A DNA stretch of 64,000 nt, from contig CBDBGH010000003.1 in NCBI GenBank assembly GCA_965205265.1, positions 4,352,001 to 4,416,000 of the forward strand, in the 5' to 3' direction. Position 1 is the first letter of the stretch, and each line of letters starts with the position of its first letter. A model generated the notes under the pieces. That model saw nothing but the letters and a program-made list of their open reading frames with translations, was not told the origin of the DNA and did not search any database. Source of the stretch: Alphaproteobacteria bacterium. Its GTDB lineage: Bacteria > Pseudomonadota > Alphaproteobacteria > Bin95. The position numbers were made by a program, and so were the translations under genes. This document shows, one piece after another, positions 1,833 through 9,817 of this stretch.

Positions 1833-2960
1833 ATGACCTCGAAGGACAACGGAGGCAACGACCCGTCCCCGCCGGACCGAGCCGGCAACGTTATGGACCT
1901 GCTGATCGGCTGGCGCGCGGGCGGGACAGAGGCGGCGGGTGAACCGGCGGCCGAACGCAATGCCGAGGAAGCCGCCGAACCCGGCGCCGAGGCCGTGTCC
2001 GTTCCAGCTCCCGATCCTGCTGTCGCGACGACGGCGGAACTCGCCGCCGGCCAGCAGCGTATCCTGGGCCTTCTGGAGCAGCTCGCGCCAAAGCAGGCCG
2101 AAGCGACGACCGGCGAGGCCGGAACCGACCTGCAGGAGGCTGCGGCTGCGATCCAGGCGGCGACGGAGTGGGTGAGCGACATCCGCGCGGCGATCGAGAC
2201 CGTGCTGGCCGCGACGGGCAAGTCGATCCAGAACCTGAATGCGGCCGAACAGGGCCTCGGCGAGGAAGCGGCAGCGCTGAAGACCCGCGCCGGGGAGATC
2301 GACGGCCAGGTCGAGGCGCTCAGGTCGGGCGCGCGGGTACTCGGCACTCGGCTCAGGCAGCTGGACGAGGCGCGGCAGAATCTGGATGCGCGCTCTGCCG
2401 AACTCCAGGCGGTGAAGCAGGAGATCGCGAAATACTACGGCGAGTGGACTGCAGCGGCGTTGACCTACCGGCGGGAGATGGCGGGGCTGACGAAGCGCCT
2501 GGACGAGGGCGAGACGCTGGCGGCGCGCGTGGAGCAGTCGATCGACCCCTGGACCGAACGAATCGAGAAGAGCCTCGACGAGAGCGCGAAGGCGCAGAAG
2601 CGGGCTGCGGCGGAGACGTCGGGCAATGTGGAGCGGTTGACCCAGGGCGGCGACGCTTTCCTCGACAAGTTCGGTACAGCGTACAGTGAGGCGCTGGAAG
2701 GATTCCGGGCGGAGTGGCGGCGCACGCGGCGCTGGACCGTACCGGTTCTGGCGTCTGCGCTGATTCTGGCCTTGCCCGGTTTCACTGCGGTGGGAGCGTT
2801 CGGGCAAAGCCAGTTCGGCATTTTCAAGCCCTACGACGACACGGACGGCTGGAAACAGGCCGTGTGGGACTATCAGGGAGAAGACGTAAAGCGGTGCCTG
2901 ATGAGAGCCTCGAAGTCCCCGACGCCGGTCATGTGCAACTTTGAGGTCGACTGGCCATGA
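1833..2960 (+). CDS. Hypothetical coiled-coil protein with a C-terminal TM helix; relaxase-associated
   Basis: AAGGAG RBS; heptad-rich middle; hydrophobic WTVPVLASALILALPGFTAVGAF; directly upstream of the relaxase. Confidence 0.7.
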   Translation: MTSKDNGGNDPSPPDRAGNVMDLLIGWRAGGTEAAGEPAAERNAEEAAEPGAEAVSVPAPDPAVATTAELAAGQQRILGLLEQLAPKQAEATTGEAGTDLQEAAAAIQAATEWVSDIRAAIETVLAATGKSIQNLNAAEQGLGEEAAALKTRAGEIDGQVEALRSGARVLGTRLRQLDEARQNLDARSAELQAVKQEIAKYYGEWTAAALTYRREMAGLTKRLDEGETLAARVEQSIDPWTERIEKSLDESAKAQKRAAAETSGNVERLTQGGDAFLDKFGTAYSEALEGFRAEWRRTRRWTVPVLASALILALPGFTAVGAFGQSQFGIFKPYDDTDGWKQAVWDYQGEDVKRCLMRASKSPTPVMCNFEVDWP

Positions 2961-3013
2961 GCGTTGTTGCCCCGCACGGCAAGTTTGCGGTTCTGTCAGG
3001 CTGATCGAGGCGC

Positions 3014-6000
3014 ATGGTTGCGAACCTGAACGACCTCAGTTCGACCACGATGACGGTCGAGTATTTCGCGGAGGAGGGCTACTACGCGAAGAACGACCCG
3101 CGGCAGCGCCGGGCGAGCTTCTGGCACGGGGGCGCGGCCCGCGCGCTCGGCCTGCCGAAGCATGTCTCGCCGCGCCGTTTCGAGCGCATTCTGCTGGGCT
3201 ACGTGCCGGGCACGGATATCCGGCTCGGTCGGGCGCGTGACGGGGAGCACCAGCACAGGCCGGGCTTCGATCTCACGCTGTCGGCGCCGAAGACGGTCTC
3301 GCTGGAGGCGCTTCTGTATGGCGACCGGCGGGTTCTGGGCGCGCACGATGCGGCGGTGAAGACGACGCTCGACTGGCTGGAAGGGACCCTGCTGCAGACA
3401 CGGTCGTACGATCCCGTGACCCGCCAGCGTCCGCGCGTGGCGGCGAACGGCCTGGTGGCGGCCGGGTTCCGGCACTTGACGAGCCGGGACGAGGACCCTC
3501 AGCTGCACACGCACTGCATCATCGCCAACATGACGCGCAACCGTTCGGGCGAATGGCGAAGCGTCGAGCCGACGGAGATGCGGCGCAATGTGCGGTTGAT
3601 CGGGGCGGTCTACCGCCAGGAGCTGGCGCGGCGCCTGCTGGCGCTCGGGTTCCGGATCGAGTCGACGATGATCGGCGGCGTGCCGGGGTTCGAGATCGCG
3701 GGCTACGGGCGGGAGTTCGTGGACGCGTTCTCGTCCAGGCGGCGCGAGATCCTGGCGTGGCTGGACGAGCACGGGCTGCCCTGGAGCGCGGCGCTGACGC
3801 AGCAGGCGGCGCTCATCACCCGCAAGAAGAAGACGGACAAGGACATCGACGATCTGAGGGCGGAGTGGAAGGCGCGGGTCGAACGGCTCGGGCTTGTCCG
3901 GGACCGCAGCGTCGCGAAGCCGGGCCTTGGTCGCAGGGCGCAGGCAACGCAGAAGGCGGCGCGCAAGGCCGGGCGTCCCTATGTGCGCACGGCGGAGGAG
4001 CTCAGGCCCGAGCCGCCGGGGCTGAGTGCGCGGGAAGTGGTCTGGCGCGCGGTGGAACATCTTGCCGAGCGCGCCTCGGTCATCCGGGAAACCGACATAA
4101 GGGCGCTCGCGCTCGGTCACGCGCCCGGCCGGCACGAACTCGGAGATATAGACGCAGCGGTGACGGGGCTGGTTGCCGACGGCCACCTGGTGGAGGCGCA
4201 GGTCCTGGGCGGCCGGTCCTTCGCGACCCGGGAGGCGCTCGGCCTGGAGCGCGCGATCATGGCCCACAGGCGCCGGGCGCTCGGCGCCTCGGAACCGGTG
4301 GCGGAGGAAGGGCTCGTCTCGGGCCGGCTTGCCGAAACGATGCTCACCGAAGGGCAGAAGGAGGCGGTGCGCACGATCCTGTTGTCGCATGACCGCATCG
4401 TCGCGGTGCAGGGCGCGGCAGGCACCGGCAAGACGACCATGCTGAAGGAGGCGCTGGGACTGCTGGGCGAGCGCAAGGCGGTCCTGCTGGCGCCGTCGGC
4501 CGCCGCCGCGCGGGTCCTGCGGGAGGAGACCGGGTCCCGGGCGCGGACGCTGCAATGGTTCCTCACCCGCCATGGCGACCTCGGCAACGCCGCGCGTGTG
4601 GCGCGGGACCGGCAGGAACACGAGGGCTCGGTGCTGGTGCTGGACGAGGCGTCGATGGTCTCGACGGCGGAGATGGAGCTGCTGTTGCGGGTCGCGGAGC
4701 GGCTGCGGGTTGCGCGGCTGGTGCTGGTTGGCGACCGGCGCCAGCTTCGCGCCGTGTCCGCCGGCGAGCCGTTCCGGGCGCTGCAGGAGGCGGGCGTGGC
4801 GACGGCGGAGATGGAGGAGGTCCTGCGCCAGCGCGACCCGGCGCTGAAGGCCGCGGTCGAGCATCTGAAGGAGGGCCGCGCGCGCGAGGCGCTGCAAGGG
4901 CTCGAACATGTGCATGAGGCGCCGCAGCAGGAGCTGGGCGCGGAGGCGGCCCGCATCTGGCTTGCGCTCGATCCCGGCGAGAGGGAGCGGACGGCGATCC
5001 TGGCGCCGACGCATTTCATCCGGGCGGAGATCCACCGGGTCGTGCGGGACGGGCTTGCGCGCGAGGGTGTGCTGCACGGGCGCGAGCTGGAGATCGAGCG
5101 CTATGTGAACCGGCACCTGACAGCGGCGCAGCGGGCGGACCTGCGCAACCACGAGCCGGGCGACATCGTGCTGTTCCATTCGCGCGTGGCGCCGCTGCGG
5201 GTCGAGAAGGGCGACGCCTGCCGGGTGATGCGCACGGAGGGGGAGCTCGTCTTCCTGGAGCACCCGACGGGGCGCACCTTGCACATCCGGCCGGGCGACA
5301 ACTGGGTGCGCTACCGGTTCGGGCTCTACGAGACGGCGCGCATCCGCATCCGGGCGGGCGACCGCATCCGCTGGACGATGAACGATGAGCCGCGCGGACT
5401 CGTGAACGGCGGCGAGGCGGTCGTGCGGGAGATCGGCCCGCGCCGGGTGAAGTTCGATCTCGGCGACGGCAAGACGCTGTCGCTCGCCCGCACCGACCCG
5501 CAGCTTCGCCATATCGACCATGCCTGGAGCACGACCGTGCATGCGGCGCAGGGCATGACCCGCGATCGCGCGATCGGCGTGCTCGACACGGGACACGGGG
5601 CATTGACCGGCCAGGCGGGCCTCTATGTGGAGGTGAGCCGGGCCAGGGACCAGTTCGTGCTGGTGACCAACGACCGCGAGCGGCTGGAAGAGGTTCTGGA
5701 AGCGAATGACGGCGCGCGCATGACGGCGCTGGAGGCGGTGGGCGAGGGGGAGGACCCGCCGCCGGGCGCGCCTGCCGCAGCGCTTGCGATGCTGCGCGGG
5801 CTGGAGGCGGACTGGCGCCGGCTCGTCGTCCAAGCGGAAACACAAGGTCGGGAACTCACCCGCATGGAAGACTATGCCCGCATCGTCACCGGCGCGGCGA
5901 TGCTGGCGGAGGACATGGCGCTTCCCGCGGACCTGCGGGCGTTCGTGGAGGAGGTCCGGCGCCGGGACGCGCAGGCGATTGCGGAGCGCAAGCGCGGGTT

Positions 6001-8251
6001 CGCGTTCCTGCGCAGGGCCGAGATGCACTGCCGAGGCTGGCCGCTGCTGAAATGGGCGGCAGCAAAGCGCGGGCATTCGCTCGCCGCGCTACCGGAGCAT
6101 GCGGCCTGGCTGGCCGACGGCGAGGCGCTTGCCGGGACGGGAGAGCGGCTTCGGGCGGCGAGCGGCAGGAGCGTCGCCGGAAGGATTGCATCCGCGCTCC
6201 GGCGCCTGGAGCGCAGCCGCGAGGTGGACGAGGCGGAGCGGTTCCGGGAGGCCGCGGCGCGGCACGAGGCTGGCGCGCGGGCGGCGGGCCTCGATCCCCG
6301 CGAGGCGGCCGGTGCCAGGGCGCTGGCGCAATGGGCGGGACGGCTCCGGGGCCGGGAGATACCGGAGGCCGTGCGTCCGACCGTCGAGGCTTGGTGTGAG
6401 GCGGCCAGGGAACCCGTGCCTGCTTCCGAAACGCGCCGCCGGGAAACCTCTCCGACGCCCGACGACAGGAAGGCCGCGCTGCAGATCGAGCTGTTCCTGG
6501 CGGATTGCGACGGTCTCCTGTTCGAGGCCAGCCCTGGAGCCGCGGAACTGCCAGCCGGCGCCGGACAACCGGTCCCCTGGAACGATCGGGCGGAGATGCT
6601 TCGCCGGCAGGGGCTCCGCATGCTGGGCGAGGGACCGGGCGCCTGGCTCGACGATCCGCTGCGTATCCGCCTTGCGCGTGTCGAGGCAGACCGCGTGCGG
6701 GTCCGCGAAGCCGTTGACAGGATCGCAGAGGCAGCGCTGCAGCGCCGCTCGGAGGAGTTCATGGCGCTTGGACGCCTCGTCCGGCGGCGCTACCGGGAGG
6801 CGAAGTCCGATCCGGTCGACGTCGAGGAATGGGCCGCGCTCCGGGACCGGGCGGAGGCGCTGCGCGGCGAGCCCGGCCTGTCGCCGTCGGTGGAACGCGC
6901 CGTGCGCTGGGTGCGGGAGCGGGACGCCCGCGCCAGGGCCGAGACCCGGCCGGTCGCGGCGTTCCTGGAAACCGGCGGCGCGCATCTGCGGCGGCGAGAG
7001 GCAATCGAGGAGACGGCCCGGTCGCGGGGCGTCGCGCCCGTAACGCTGGAGGAAACGGCGGCCTGGCGGGACGGCTGCGCCGGTATCCGCGGCGCCGGGC
7101 GGCGCCTGCTTGGCGAGACCAGCGGCGATGAGGCGGAGACCCGGGCCGCCCGCCGTCTTGCCGACATGCCCCGTTTGAGAGGCCGGGTACGGGAGGTCCT
7201 GGACCGGCTGGATGCGGCTGAGATGCAGGACCGGAGAGACCGGTTCCATGCGCTTGCGGACGAGGTCGAGGCGCAGGCCGTCGAACGGGACGCGCTGGCG
7301 CTTCATGCCGATGGCTATGCGGGCGCAATGGCGCTCGCGGAGGAACTGCAGAGCTCGGAGGCGCTACCGGAAACGCTCCGGCAGAGGGTCGAGGGCTGGC
7401 TCTCCCGCGACCGCCAGTGGCAGGAGGAGCTGGCGTCGGTCGCCCGGCTTGCGGGCGCGACCGCGAAATCGGCCAATCCGGCCGCGCGCCGCGAGGCTGC
7501 TGGCCGGCCTGCGGTGGCGGAGGCCATACGCCGCGAGACCGCCCGGCTCGCGCGTCTGCCGGAACCCGGGCGCACGATTCGCTGGACCGGGGAGGAGCCG
7601 CTCGTTCCGGGCGACCGGGTCCGCATCGCCGAGGGCGCGCACATGGTCGAGGCCGTCGTAATCTCCGCAGGAGCGGCAGGCGGCATACGCCCCGACGATG
7701 CGATACGGCTGCTGATCCTGTGGCCCGGGGCTGCGGGAGCGCCGCCCCGGGCCGGAGTCGTCATTCCCTATGATGCCGGGTATCTCGCCAAGTCCGGTTG
7801 CGTCCGCGCCGCCTGGGCCGATGAGGGACTACGGGAGCTGGAGCTGGCCCGGCATGTGTCCGTGCCATCGGCCTTCTGCCGCCTGCCCTGCGACGAACCG
7901 GTCCGCGGCGACCGCATCGCCTGGACCGAGACCGCCGGGGAGGATGGCCAGGTCCGCACCATCGAGGCCAGGGTGACGGCGCGGGCCAACGACATCCTCT
8001 ACGGCAGCGCCAGGCTGGAACTTGAAGCTCTCGAAGCCGCCGGTCCCGACGCACCCGAGCCGGGCAGTGGTATCGAGAGGACGGCCGCCGCCGTCGCCGC
8101 CCGTGGCTGCTTCCGCGCCGAGTGGGGCGACGAAGCGCGCCGCGAGCGCATACTCAACCCGCCAAAGCCCGTCCAGGCGCCGCGGCAGGCGCAGCAACAG
8201 GAGCAGACACAGCGCATCGACCGCTCTGAAGGTGGCGGTTTGCGCATGTGA
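3014..8251 (+). CDS. MOBF (TrwC/TraI-like) relaxase-helicase with long C-terminal extension
   Basis: N-terminal EYF..GYY tyrosines, FDLTLSAPK, HLTSRDEDPQLHTH (HUH), Walker A QGAAGTGKTT, VLDEASM, LVGDRRQL, TVHAAQG, YVEVSRAR. Confidence 0.93.
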   Translation: MVANLNDLSSTTMTVEYFAEEGYYAKNDPRQRRASFWHGGAARALGLPKHVSPRRFERILLGYVPGTDIRLGRARDGEHQHRPGFDLTLSAPKTVSLEALLYGDRRVLGAHDAAVKTTLDWLEGTLLQTRSYDPVTRQRPRVAANGLVAAGFRHLTSRDEDPQLHTHCIIANMTRNRSGEWRSVEPTEMRRNVRLIGAVYRQELARRLLALGFRIESTMIGGVPGFEIAGYGREFVDAFSSRRREILAWLDEHGLPWSAALTQQAALITRKKKTDKDIDDLRAEWKARVERLGLVRDRSVAKPGLGRRAQATQKAARKAGRPYVRTAEELRPEPPGLSAREVVWRAVEHLAERASVIRETDIRALALGHAPGRHELGDIDAAVTGLVADGHLVEAQVLGGRSFATREALGLERAIMAHRRRALGASEPVAEEGLVSGRLAETMLTEGQKEAVRTILLSHDRIVAVQGAAGTGKTTMLKEALGLLGERKAVLLAPSAAAARVLREETGSRARTLQWFLTRHGDLGNAARVARDRQEHEGSVLVLDEASMVSTAEMELLLRVAERLRVARLVLVGDRRQLRAVSAGEPFRALQEAGVATAEMEEVLRQRDPALKAAVEHLKEGRAREALQGLEHVHEAPQQELGAEAARIWLALDPGERERTAILAPTHFIRAEIHRVVRDGLAREGVLHGRELEIERYVNRHLTAAQRADLRNHEPGDIVLFHSRVAPLRVEKGDACRVMRTEGELVFLEHPTGRTLHIRPGDNWVRYRFGLYETARIRIRAGDRIRWTMNDEPRGLVNGGEAVVREIGPRRVKFDLGDGKTLSLARTDPQLRHIDHAWSTTVHAAQGMTRDRAIGVLDTGHGALTGQAGLYVEVSRARDQFVLVTNDRERLEEVLEANDGARMTALEAVGEGEDPPPGAPAAALAMLRGLEADWRRLVVQAETQGRELTRMEDYARIVTGAAMLAEDMALPADLRAFVEEVRRRDAQAIAERKRGFAFLRRAEMHCRGWPLLKWAAAKRGHSLAALPEHAAWLADGEALAGTGERLRAASGRSVAGRIASALRRLERSREVDEAERFREAAARHEAGARAAGLDPREAAGARALAQWAGRLRGREIPEAVRPTVEAWCEAAREPVPASETRRRETSPTPDDRKAALQIELFLADCDGLLFEASPGAAELPAGAGQPVPWNDRAEMLRRQGLRMLGEGPGAWLDDPLRIRLARVEADRVRVREAVDRIAEAALQRRSEEFMALGRLVRRRYREAKSDPVDVEEWAALRDRAEALRGEPGLSPSVERAVRWVRERDARARAETRPVAAFLETGGAHLRRREAIEETARSRGVAPVTLEETAAWRDGCAGIRGAGRRLLGETSGDEAETRAARRLADMPRLRGRVREVLDRLDAAEMQDRRDRFHALADEVEAQAVERDALALHADGYAGAMALAEELQSSEALPETLRQRVEGWLSRDRQWQEELASVARLAGATAKSANPAARREAAGRPAVAEAIRRETARLARLPEPGRTIRWTGEEPLVPGDRVRIAEGAHMVEAVVISAGAAGGIRPDDAIRLLILWPGAAGAPPRAGVVIPYDAGYLAKSGCVRAAWADEGLRELELARHVSVPSAFCRLPCDEPVRGDRIAWTETAGEDGQVRTIEARVTARANDILYGSARLELEALEAAGPDAPEPGSGIERTAAAVAARGCFRAEWGDEARRERILNPPKPVQAPRQAQQQEQTQRIDRSEGGGLRM

Positions 8252-8476: not shown

Positions 8477-8572
8477 CGAGATGGTAGTCTCCTTAGAGCC
8501 TGACCCGAAAAGAGTTGAGCGGTTTCAAGGGTTTGTGATTCAGTTCGTTTGGAAGCCGAACGGAGATCACGG

Positions 8573-9003
8573 ATGCCCTGGACCGAAACCGCTCGCCGAG
8601 AGTATCGGCGGGATTGCCCGCGCTATGCAAGCGATGTGACTGATGGTGAATGGGCTTTGATCGAGCCCTTCATGCCGTCGCCCTGCGGTATCGGCCGCCC
8701 GCGCAAGACCGATCTGCGCGAGGTCGTGAACGCGGTGCTGTATATGGCCTCGACGGGATGCCAGTGGCGCCAGTTGCCGAAGGACTTCCCGCCGGTCTCG
8801 ACGGTGCAGCGCTATTTCTACCAGTGGCGTGACAGCAGGCTGTGGCAGACGATCCGGTTCCATCTGGCCGTGCAGGCACGCGAGCGCGAGGGGCGCGAGG
8901 CCCAGCCGAGTGCGGGCGTGATCGACAGCCAGACGGTGAAAACCACCGAGGCGGGCGGGGTCAGCGGCTATGACGGTGGAAAGAAGATCAAGGGCCGCAA
9001 GCG
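8573..9003 (+). pseudogene. IS5 transposase, N-terminal half
   Basis: YASDVTDGEW, TGCQWRQLPKDFPP, IDSQTVKT, KKIKGRKR; cut by IS66. Confidence 0.9.
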
Positions 9004-9093
9004 GTAAGCATCCGACAAGGGCCGCAGGGTATGTCGGTTTGAGTTTGTCGGCGGCGCGCGGCTGATCGGGACGGATCAGGTGAGCTTGTCTGG

Positions 9094-9316
9094 CTATGCG
9101 GCGTGATTGTGCCGCTGGCTGTCCTGCCAGTTCCAGGGGAGGAGTTCGCCGAGCCGGCTCTGCGGCGTCTCTGCGATCCGGCGCAGGACATCGGCGAGCC
9201 AGGCCTGGGGGATCGACGTTGTTGAGCTTGGCGGTGCCGATGAGGGTATACATGGCTGCGGCGCGCCTGCCGCCGCGGTCGGAGCCGGCGAACAGCCACG
9301 CTTTGCGGCCGAGTGC
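9094..9316 (-). pseudogene. tnpC: IS66 tnpC C-terminal fragment
   Basis: ALGRKAWLFAGSDRGG..MYTLIGTAKLNNVDP, then a frameshift in the G5 run 9207-9211, then QAWLADVL..LLPWNW. Confidence 0.88.
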
Positions 9317-9801
9317 GATCGTGCATTCATTCTGCCCATGTCGGGCAGGACTGCGTCATCCATTACCCGTGGCATGCCCATTTCGGCCGCCGTGTCCGCC
9401 TTGAAGTTATCGAACAGCGTGCCGACGGCCTCATGGCCTCTGTCGAGGTAGAGCCCGGGCTGGTCATCAAGATTCCCGCCTGGTCGCTCGATCCTGCGTC
9501 ATGCGCCGGCATGGAGATCGGCGCGCCGCGTGTATCCCTGGCCGCTCTTGCCGCGCTTCACGAGGTTCTCGTCGGCCAGGGTTTTAGACGAAGCTCCTCC
9601 GCTGACGGGACGGTTAGTGAGGAGGAGCTCAATGAAGTCTTTGGCTGTACCGGCGAGGCCGCCGGGCGAGTTCCGACAGCTCAGCATGCTGTTGGACACA
9701 CCGGCGCTGCGTGGCCTGAACCGGGAGGAACGCGACGCGGTCGTGGGCGCGCTGGCCGGGCTGCTTCTGGAAGCGGCGGATTTCGCGGTGAAGGAGGATG
9801 A
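9313..9801 (+). CDS. Accessory ORF1 of the integrase element; native start lies across attP
   Basis: HSAH..IHYPWH..IPAWSLDPASC..PRVSLAALAAL; in frame with ATG 11891 after circularisation. Confidence 0.6.
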   Translation: MRSCIHSAHVGQDCVIHYPWHAHFGRRVRLEVIEQRADGLMASVEVEPGLVIKIPAWSLDPASCAGMEIGAPRVSLAALAALHEVLVGQGFRRSSSADGTVSEEELNEVFGCTGEAAGRVPTAQHAVGHTGAAWPEPGGTRRGRGRAGRAASGSGGFRGEGG

Positions 9802-9817
9802 CGATGAGCACCTCTGA
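9632..9817 (+). CDS. Accessory ORF2 (61 aa) overlapping the integrase start
   Basis: GAGGAGG RBS; RQLSMLLD..LNREERDAVVGALAGLLLEAA amphipathic helix. Confidence 0.6.
   Translation: MKSLAVPARPPGEFRQLSMLLDTPALRGLNREERDAVVGALAGLLLEAADFAVKEDDDEHL

Follow-up and report, generated by a model that had tools for sequence, protein, structure and literature searches.

Results

A serine-recombinase element within an IS66-family transposase gene

The DNA analyzed here is a stretch of 64,000 nucleotides (nt), the window, from an Alphaproteobacteria bacterium (assembly GCA_965205265.1, contig CBDBGH010000003.1, positions 4,352,001 to 4,416,000). Positions 9317-11906 of the window constitute a 2590-bp element with three co-directional, overlapping genes, namely open reading frame 1 (ORF1), ORF2 and a gene for a large serine recombinase (LSR), and the element splits an IS66-family transposase gene on the minus strand into two halves (11907-13286 and 9094-9314). 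Sequence comparisons indicate that it carries a real and conserved recombination-state switch acting at translation: ORF1 is open to the left edge of the element without a start codon, and its putative translation signals lie at the right end.

In the genome of the window the element occurs in five copies with 99-100% identity, four of them flanked by IS66 variants and the fifth by a darT gene. All five are identical between the GC dinucleotides at 9315-9316 and 11905-11906, and the sequences diverge outside both. An assembly unitig of run X1, 2592 nt in length, covers exactly 9315-11906. The same genome holds an unoccupied, diverged IS66 site with 33 nt at the position where the window has 18 and 15 nt plus the element, and the termini form an imperfect inverted repeat of 22 nt (9314-9335 versus 11886-11907; 77% complementary). 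By the edges of the five copies, the unitig, the unoccupied site and the inverted repeat, the anatomy is that of a serine-recombinase element with a 2-bp core, in which crossover falls at the core between imperfect inverted-repeat arms and the target duplication is limited to the core itself. Judging from its sequence, the element is insertion-sequence-like and moved by its LSR; excision and integration are indicated indirectly, by the five copies at different sites and by one naturally joined form in a relative. An unoccupied close copy of this particular IS66 was not found in the genome, and the sole unoccupied copy has 87-88% identical flanks. The insertion point lies in R-x-I-A|L-G-R-K, the coding motif that is best conserved among IS66-family transposase genes. 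Members of the element family are found in both orientations relative to the transposase gene, which is expected because the GC core is palindromic, and in unrelated genes.

Relatives were collected by a protein search, which returned 29 relatives, and from species-representative genomes, where relatives occur at 238 places; 80 loci were taken for analysis. Relatives are also carried by 200 plasmid records, mostly from Rhizobium and Sinorhizobium.

ORF1 appears to be a protein-coding gene without its own start

GC content by codon position is coding-like in the ORF1 frame up to about 9630 and then in the ORF2 frame. Across 57 distinct sequences, codons 11-51 of ORF1 keep their residues while synonymous sites are free to vary; tyrosine, for example, is encoded by TAC in 28 and by TAT in 28 sequences, and invariant arginine by 4-5 codons. 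The first in-frame internal ATG, GTG or TTG lies anywhere from codon -3 to +52 (61 distinct sequences). None of these internal starts is conserved, and most fall downstream of conserved residues. Since conserved residues precede the scattered internal starts, the N-terminus of ORF1 needs a start further upstream. These substitution patterns indicate that ORF1 encodes a real protein and that its N-terminal residues, ahead of any internal start, are under protein-level selection.

The beginning of the ORF1 body evolves differently. Its left-arm motif, CATTCTGCCCAT, doubles as coding sequence for His-Ser-Ala-His, and synonymous change is nearly absent from the six codons that begin with the His codon (CAT TCT GCC CAT GTC GGG), also in loci that were anchored by the amino-acid motif alone. 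This stretch is under constraint at the DNA level, in its role as a recombinase-binding arm.

In the integrated window copy, the sole in-frame start is a host-derived GTG at 9313 that has no purine tract upstream, in agreement with the first-pass annotation, which had noted only this GTG and no evident ribosome-binding site. The other copies in the genome have GGG or AGG at this position. Twenty-nine of 52 distinct integrated left junctions lack any in-frame start in the flank before a stop codon. The ATG that IS66 flanks provide at 8 of the 52 lies ten codons upstream and stems from the antisense of Ser-Trp (TCATGG). Database proteins with the N-termini M-T/I-F were considered as a trace of attP and rejected as such, since their source is attL junctions within IS66, at which TCATGG read in antisense provides an in-frame ATG.

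Annotation pipelines miss ORF1 because the integrated form has no start. RefSeq plasmid records (L093 and L094) leave it unannotated: in one of them ORF2 alone is called, and in the other, a Variovorax plasmid, an antisense ORF is called over ORF1 as a 'hypothetical protein'. Owing to gaps in the PLSDB feature table, pseudogene calls would not show in it.

Joining of the ends would supply ORF1 with translation signals

At the right end of the element, a purine tract (GAAGAGGGGG, 11875-11884) lies just at the LSR stop and is followed by an ATG at 11891-11893, 17 nt after that stop. In silico joining of 11891-11906 to 9317-9801 gives an open frame of 16 + 485 nt, that is, 166 codons. Both features had been claimed in the first-pass annotation, as a purine tract and ATG right after the LSR stop and as a GC join giving an in-frame ORF1 of 166 aa, and both were reproduced here. 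The core lies 29 nt past the LSR stop and within ORF1 codons 5-6, and the joined geometry is constant: ATG, 11 nt, the 2-nt core, 11 nt and CAT.

Among relatives whose LSR is intact, the right-end motif occurs exactly once at -10 to +60 nt from the LSR stop in 33 of 34 copies; L027 is without the motif in the strict search span, and a looser screen found one further upstream. Repeating the attP reconstruction in these homologs gave the same layout at every one of 28 distinct right ends, each with a Shine-Dalgarno-like tract, an ATG and an open joined ORF1, a recurrence beyond chance. The dinucleotide is the same at both junctions in 25 of the 28, mostly GC and also TT, AG, GT and AC. With the looser right-end screen, the joined ORF1 was open in 40 of 40 loci (161-176 codons); this screen demanded a purine-rich tract, which biases the Shine-Dalgarno statistic, whereas the set of 28 was obtained without that filter. 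It also left out 30 of 70 left anchors for want of a right end, owing to a contig end, a broken LSR or an inserted element.

The energy of the duplex with the anti-Shine-Dalgarno sequence averages -9.58 at the junction ATG (28 distinct right ends), compared with -9.29 at ORF2 starts and -2.99 for 1011 ATG triplets within LSR genes. In acidobacterial relatives the purine tract is AGGAGG, and the LSR stop overlaps the junction ATG. The tract lies outside the inverted repeat, and the repeat does not account for it.

Six relatives (L018, L020, L042, L062, L071 and L086) have non-GC cores (TT, AG, GT, AC) that are the same at both junctions and come with matching arm changes, a pattern that points to retargeting within the element family. 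In four loci (L033, L037, L059 and L065) the dinucleotides differ between the junctions, which suggests decay or rearrangement.

A contiguous junction in metagenomic DNA

A pattern of ATGA, 23 free bases and the left-arm motif was matched by one (L092) of 241 million scanned metagenome records. On its minus strand, the 3' end of an LSR gene (homologous to residues ~580-692 of the window LSR), the purine tract, the ATG, the core and ORF1 follow each other uninterrupted. The contiguous junction is thus found in natural DNA, be it in a circle, in a tandem or in some other form that persists. In this copy (locus 190-1745) an IS3-family insertion sequence lies within ORF1, and the junction-bearing DNA therefore persisted long enough for a second element to insert. 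The same pattern had no match in the other 91 loci, in viral contigs or in the window's own genome. The joint from 11906 to 9317 was not seen in Logan contigs of runs X1, X2, X4 and X5 over 9200-12020; such contigs drop rare forms and are hence uninformative on its absence.

The ORF1 frame extends to the start of the recombinase gene

In each of 22 distinct elements whose LSR is intact, the stop codon of ORF1 overlaps or directly adjoins the start of the LSR gene (21 of the NTGA type and one TGA-2 nt-ATG); 27 of 49 distinct ORF1 sequences were left out of this count, being without an intact LSR of at least 650 aa. The ORF1 tail is poorly conserved as protein and spans all of ORF2. Nevertheless, of 28 distinct elements, 27 keep its frame open across ORF2 as far as the LSR start, against 6.2 expected from synonymous resampling of ORF2 (0 of 200,000 simulations reached 27), a contrast that kinship among the elements somewhat inflates. 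The third frame across ORF2 is open in none of the 28. The simplest reading of this arrangement is translational coupling, in which ribosomes from the junction ATG would reach the LSR start and pass over the ORF2 start.

ORF1 is predicted to bind the recombinase

The LSR matches PF00239 (E 8e-22), PF07508 (E 4.5e-17) and PF13408 (E 2.8e-7), as well as the phrog_95 integrase family (E 5.5e-56), and its nearest solved structure is SPbeta integrase (E 2e-6). In an AlphaFold model with a mean predicted local distance difference test (pLDDT) of 67.8, two helices (379-439 and 445-473) follow the ribbon strands (336-377) and form a coiled-coil insertion. Residues 618-663 (window 11649-11786) constitute an extra C-terminal HTH_17 domain of the excisionase/MerR type, and a beta-rich segment lies between it and the coiled coil. 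Such an additional C-terminal domain is unusual for serine integrases.

The conserved domain of ORF1 comprises about 100 residues and is modeled as a small beta-barrel plus a helix (pLDDT 75.6). Searches of Pfam, NCBIfam and PHROGs gave no family for ORF1 or ORF2. A Pfam match to Raffinose_syn, found in 26 of 51 ORF1 members (best E 1.7e-5), was judged a local composition match and rejected as spurious.

Complex prediction for the LSR and the ORF1 domain gave a score of 0.66 (runs 0.67, 0.65 and 0.66), compared with 0.00 for the best of three controls. Of 80 solved complexes, 58 score this high, as do 2 of 110 mismatched pairs; these counts serve as a rough guide here because custom alignments were used. 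The runs share at least 77% of their contacts, and the partner pLDDT is at least 69. On the LSR, the predicted interface comprises residues 337-344, 388-405 and 481-540, which in the LSR model fall on the zinc ribbon, on the proximal stretch of helix 379-439 of the coiled coil and on the segment that follows helix 445-473. The hotspot for binding of recombination directionality factors (RDFs) on serine integrases is the junction between DNA-binding domain 2 (DBD2) and the coiled coil, as described for these enzymes (PMC11795197; PMC5814800; PMC11722253). The predicted ORF1 contact site matches this hotspot (PMC11795197). In the light of this model, ORF1 looks like a directionality-type cofactor.

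In a language-model atlas, the clusters nearest to ORF1 are those of DUF5372 (PF17342; score 0.94, 29 of 30 matches), a family with which it has an H-P-L-x-G-like motif in common. With the PF17342 hidden Markov model, none of the 51 ORF1 alignment members matches at E up to 10, and the window protein gives no match either. Alignment of ORF1 with DUF5372 by hhalign has a probability of 7% and E 0.005, over 34 columns around the H-P-L motif. A literature search for DUF5372 returned no papers. One DUF5372 locus (L095, G178:C22:13500-21500) has a DUF5372 gene, a helix-turn-helix gene and an LSR gene at 2244-5660, in the same order as the window element. Its DUF5372 ORF is without ATG or GTG upstream of the domain, and GAGGTG plus an ATG lie directly after the LSR stop. 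This element lies between fragments of a tyrosine-integrase gene and an rve-transposase gene and adjoins a tRNA-Gln. By its sequence, L095 hints that the split-start design may be wider than the present element family. Against this generalization, a second locus (L096) has a DUF5372 gene with its own ATG and no adjoining LSR, so that the tally stands at one locus for and one not.

Table 1. Positions in the window of the element's features and of its host flanks, with the observations on which each assignment is based.
Feature	Positions	Strand	Basis
Host flank with the C-terminal portion of the disrupted IS66-family transposase gene (attB arm)	9094..9314	-	PF13817 DDE_Tnp_IS66_C match on translated 9097-9381; flank common to copies L001-L004
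GC crossover dinucleotide, left junction (attL)	9315..9316	.	Last bases common to differently flanked copies; unitig 9315-11906; same dinucleotide at both junctions in 25/28 distinct relatives
Left terminal arm, P' half of attP	9317..9348	+	Inverted repeat 9314-9335 / 11886-11907; codons without synonymous variation
ORF1 body, 485 nt, no start codon of its own	9317..9801	+	Conserved domain to ~9630; tail overlaps ORF2 and ends at LSR start
ORF2, 61 aa, own GGAGGAG ribosome-binding site, nested in 3' half of ORF1 in another frame	9632..9817	+	GC by codon position; ATG at +304 from His codon in nearly all relatives; conserved sequence
Large serine recombinase, 692 aa; resolvase, recombinase and zinc-ribbon domains, coiled coil, C-terminal HTH_17	9798..11876	+	Domain searches; start overlaps ORF1 stop (ATGA); modeled coiled coil 379-473
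Shine-Dalgarno-like purine tract, 6 nt before junction ATG	11875..11884	+	Anti-Shine-Dalgarno duplex energy -12.4
Right terminal arm, P half of attP, holds the ATG	11886..11904	+	Inverted repeat; motif [CT]A.[AT]ATGA once in 33/34 intact copies
Start codon and first 16 nt of ORF1, apart from the rest when integrated	11891..11906	+	Reconstruction; relatives; natural joined form in L092
GC crossover dinucleotide, right junction (attR)	11905..11906	.	Copy comparison; unitig; relatives
Host flank with 473 N-terminal codons of the disrupted IS66-family transposase gene	11907..13286	-	PF03050, PF13007 and PF13005 matches; unoccupied site

Discussion

We propose that the LSR integrates the element at the 2-bp core within the conserved R-x-I-A|L-G-R-K motif of IS66-family transposase genes. 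ORF1, ORF2 (nested in ORF1) and the LSR gene would form one overlapping operon, with the crossover site between ORF1 codons 5 and 6. In the integrated state, the putative ribosome-binding site, the ATG and the first five codons lie at the right end, right behind the LSR stop, while the start-less body of ORF1 lies at the left end. Excision (attL x attR) would join the ends, and only then could ORF1 be translated from its own signals. Since ORF1 would be made only from the excised form, we infer that it then favors re-integration or blocks re-excision, a wiring opposite to that of a phage RDF. On balance we consider it likely that ORF1 is translatable from its own signals only after excision and that its product acts in this direction.

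The first-pass annotation had raised the idea of a recombination-state switch that expresses a circle-specific factor for directionality, maintenance or targeting. The switch itself finds support in the selection on codons 11-51, the scattered internal starts, the 29 start-less junctions among 52, the signals at all 28 distinct right ends and the joined form in L092. Among the roles suggested for the factor, directionality gains some support from the predicted ORF1-LSR complex at the RDF site, and no support was found for maintenance or targeting.

Several points weigh against the proposed switch. The junction ATG and the adjacent run of G belong to the terminal inverted repeat, and recombinase binding alone could conserve both. 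Moreover, the ATG mirrors the CAT of the His codon in this repeat, and for this reason the ORF1 frame across attP (14 + 2 + 14 nt, 30 nt in total) does not reflect independent selection; the first-pass proposal to judge frame conservation against a chance of one in three is invalid, as this geometry sets the frame. An in-frame start is present in the flank at 23 of the 52 integrated junctions (8 ATG from IS66 antisense and 15 other), and ORF1 may be made at some sites without excision. L092 is the only natural joined form found, an IS3-family element cuts its ORF1 after ~100 codons, and this copy may not be a transient circle but a tandem or a form that persists. A simple scan of the integrated sequence showed no sigma-70-like promoter in 9000-12100. 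A Foldseek search of the ORF1 model against the PDB returned no significant match (best E 0.23, with Tudor, chromo, PsaE and KOW-like small barrels), and the LSR-ORF1 complex is a model, not a measurement. Finally, a canonical RDF promotes excision and is a poor fit for a factor made only after excision; the proposed direction is a deduction from the wiring.

Some of these points could be accommodated if the right-end ATG and the G-rich tract were an attP binding site only, with ORF1 translated otherwise (by host read-through or from host-supplied or non-canonical starts) or mainly when integrated, and with no switch at all. Such a site would explain why the ATG falls within the inverted repeat as the mirror image of a CAT codon and why the left-arm codons are conserved at the level of DNA and not of protein, and it would sit well with the in-frame flank starts at 23 of 52 junctions and with the attL origin of database proteins that begin with M-T/I-F. 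Against it, 29 of the 52 junctions are without any start, and the host starts that do occur vary in position, the common one being without a preceding purine tract. Insertion in both orientations and into unrelated host genes means that there is no dependable host signal. The tract, which is outside the repeat, is nevertheless present in 28 of 28 relatives with energies like those of true starts and is the canonical AGGAGG in acidobacterial relatives. We regard this explanation as improbable.

Another explanation retains the junction start as a leader only: ribosomes would run through ORF1 and re-initiate at the LSR start, giving more recombinase in the circle, and the ORF1 protein would have no role in directionality. 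This would be a translational analog of the junction promoters of insertion sequences and Tn4451. The overlap of the ORF1 stop with the LSR start in 22 of 22 elements, the ORF1 frame that is open over ORF2 in 27 of 28 elements against 6.2 expected, and the weak conservation of the ORF1 tail as protein are all features that a leader might have. A mere leader would not need the strong protein-level conservation of the first ~100 ORF1 residues, a defined modeled domain, or predicted binding to the LSR with all controls at 0.00, and we consider it unlikely.

The main alternative is that ORF1 is a conventional RDF, favoring excision and blocking integration, which would be produced from the first excised circle, act in trans on other copies in a burst, and delay re-integration into the vacated site. 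Its predicted binding site is indeed the RDF hotspot (PMC11795197), and five copies per genome make action in trans possible. Yet a non-replicating 2.6-kb circle that blocked its own integration would be lost, no sign of bursts was found, and the first excision would still need another route; this possibility, too, seems unlikely to us. Returning to a factor that favors integration, a tentative extension might be that ORF1 is a topology-wired inverse RDF that binds the LSR at the RDF hotspot and turns it towards integration, while its translation drives the LSR through stop/start coupling and runs over the ORF2 start, with ORF2 as the excision-side factor; the design could possibly extend to other DUF5372-like genes beside serine recombinases.

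State-dependent expression through end joining is known from the junction promoters of insertion sequences, and in the Tn4451 circle the joined ends reportedly give a promoter for the TnpX recombinase. The window element resembles Tn4451 in being recombinase-driven and in changing its expression on end joining, and TnpX is also a large serine recombinase. Tn4451 assembles a promoter and alters transcription of the recombinase, whereas here a ribosome-binding site and a start codon would be joined to an accessory gene, giving a translational switch. The parts brought together here are a ribosome-binding site and an ATG, and the simple scan of 9000-12100, made on the integrated sequence, showed no promoter.

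A functional analogy can be drawn to the integrative and conjugative elements (ICEs) ICEKp1, ICEclc and ICEEc1, which show state-dependent promoter switching of int, with the promoters of ICEKp1 and ICEclc at the 3' end (PMC13023037). As proposed for the window element, expression of a 5'-end gene depends in these ICEs on a signal from the 3' end and becomes possible upon excision alone, which favors their re-integration; they differ in having tyrosine integrases, a size of 50-100 kb, transcriptional control and a gene that is intact in both states (PMC13023037). Archaeal SSV-type 'suicidal' integrases, described in a review as exclusive to archaea, have the att site in the tyrosine recombinase gene itself (PMC8371274). 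They share with the present element an att site inside a coding sequence of the element and a gene that is whole only when excised. The window element differs in being bacterial and in having a serine recombinase. What it splits is an accessory gene of cofactor-like type, from which no more than 16 nt and the ribosome-binding site are set apart; the att site is not within the recombinase gene, as the core lies past the LSR stop and in ORF1. Similar to the RDFs phiC31 gp3, Bxb1 gp47, TG1 RDF and SPbeta SprB (PMC11795197; PMC11722253; PMC5814800), ORF1 is a small element-encoded protein that shares no common fold and is predicted to bind at the DBD2/coiled-coil junction. Known RDFs are made from the integrated prophage and promote excision, whereas ORF1 would have its own signals only after excision (PMC11795197; PMC11722253; PMC5814800).

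A literature search that did not cover subscription journals returned no report of this element family, nor of an attP-split start codon in a serine-recombinase element. Expression through end joining is known at the level of transcription; what appears to be new here is a serine-recombinase element in which a putative cofactor gene is parted from its start codon and ribosome-binding site. How serine integrases choose their direction is an active question that matters for genome engineering, and to our knowledge every answer known so far involves an RDF under separate regulation. The present element apparently registers its own state without a regulator, since the crossover site separates a putative cofactor gene from the signals for its translation. 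Should ORF1 bias the LSR towards integration, it would represent a new kind of directionality factor, and integrase tools would gain a compact control module of ~2.6 kb that limits itself. The analysis also exposes a widespread element family with an unannotated gene.

Other copies and genomic neighborhood

The element family parasitizes another mobile element, IS66, as seen in the window (9094-9314 and 11907-13286) and at loci L010, L034 and L080, an association that is of interest for mobile-element ecology. One of the five copies in the genome (L005, G000:C3:3806223-3811827) lies inside a gene for DarT, a single-stranded DNA ADP-ribosyltransferase toxin (locus 1240-1512; PF14487, E 3.9e-23), at a site that resembles the IS66 target. 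Two further copies (L003 and L004, G000:C3:2326463-2332103) are arranged head to head, ~270 bp apart, with the same left flank inverted, and at L056 the same attB arm is present on both flanks. Both arrangements suggest recombinase-mediated inversions between copies. Upstream of the element in the window, inspection by eye showed an ORF for a 1745-aa relaxase/helicase-like protein (3014-8251) and a truncated IS5-like transposase N-terminus (8549-9007), and by the same judgment this region looks like a plasmid- or ICE-derived stretch rich in insertion sequences.

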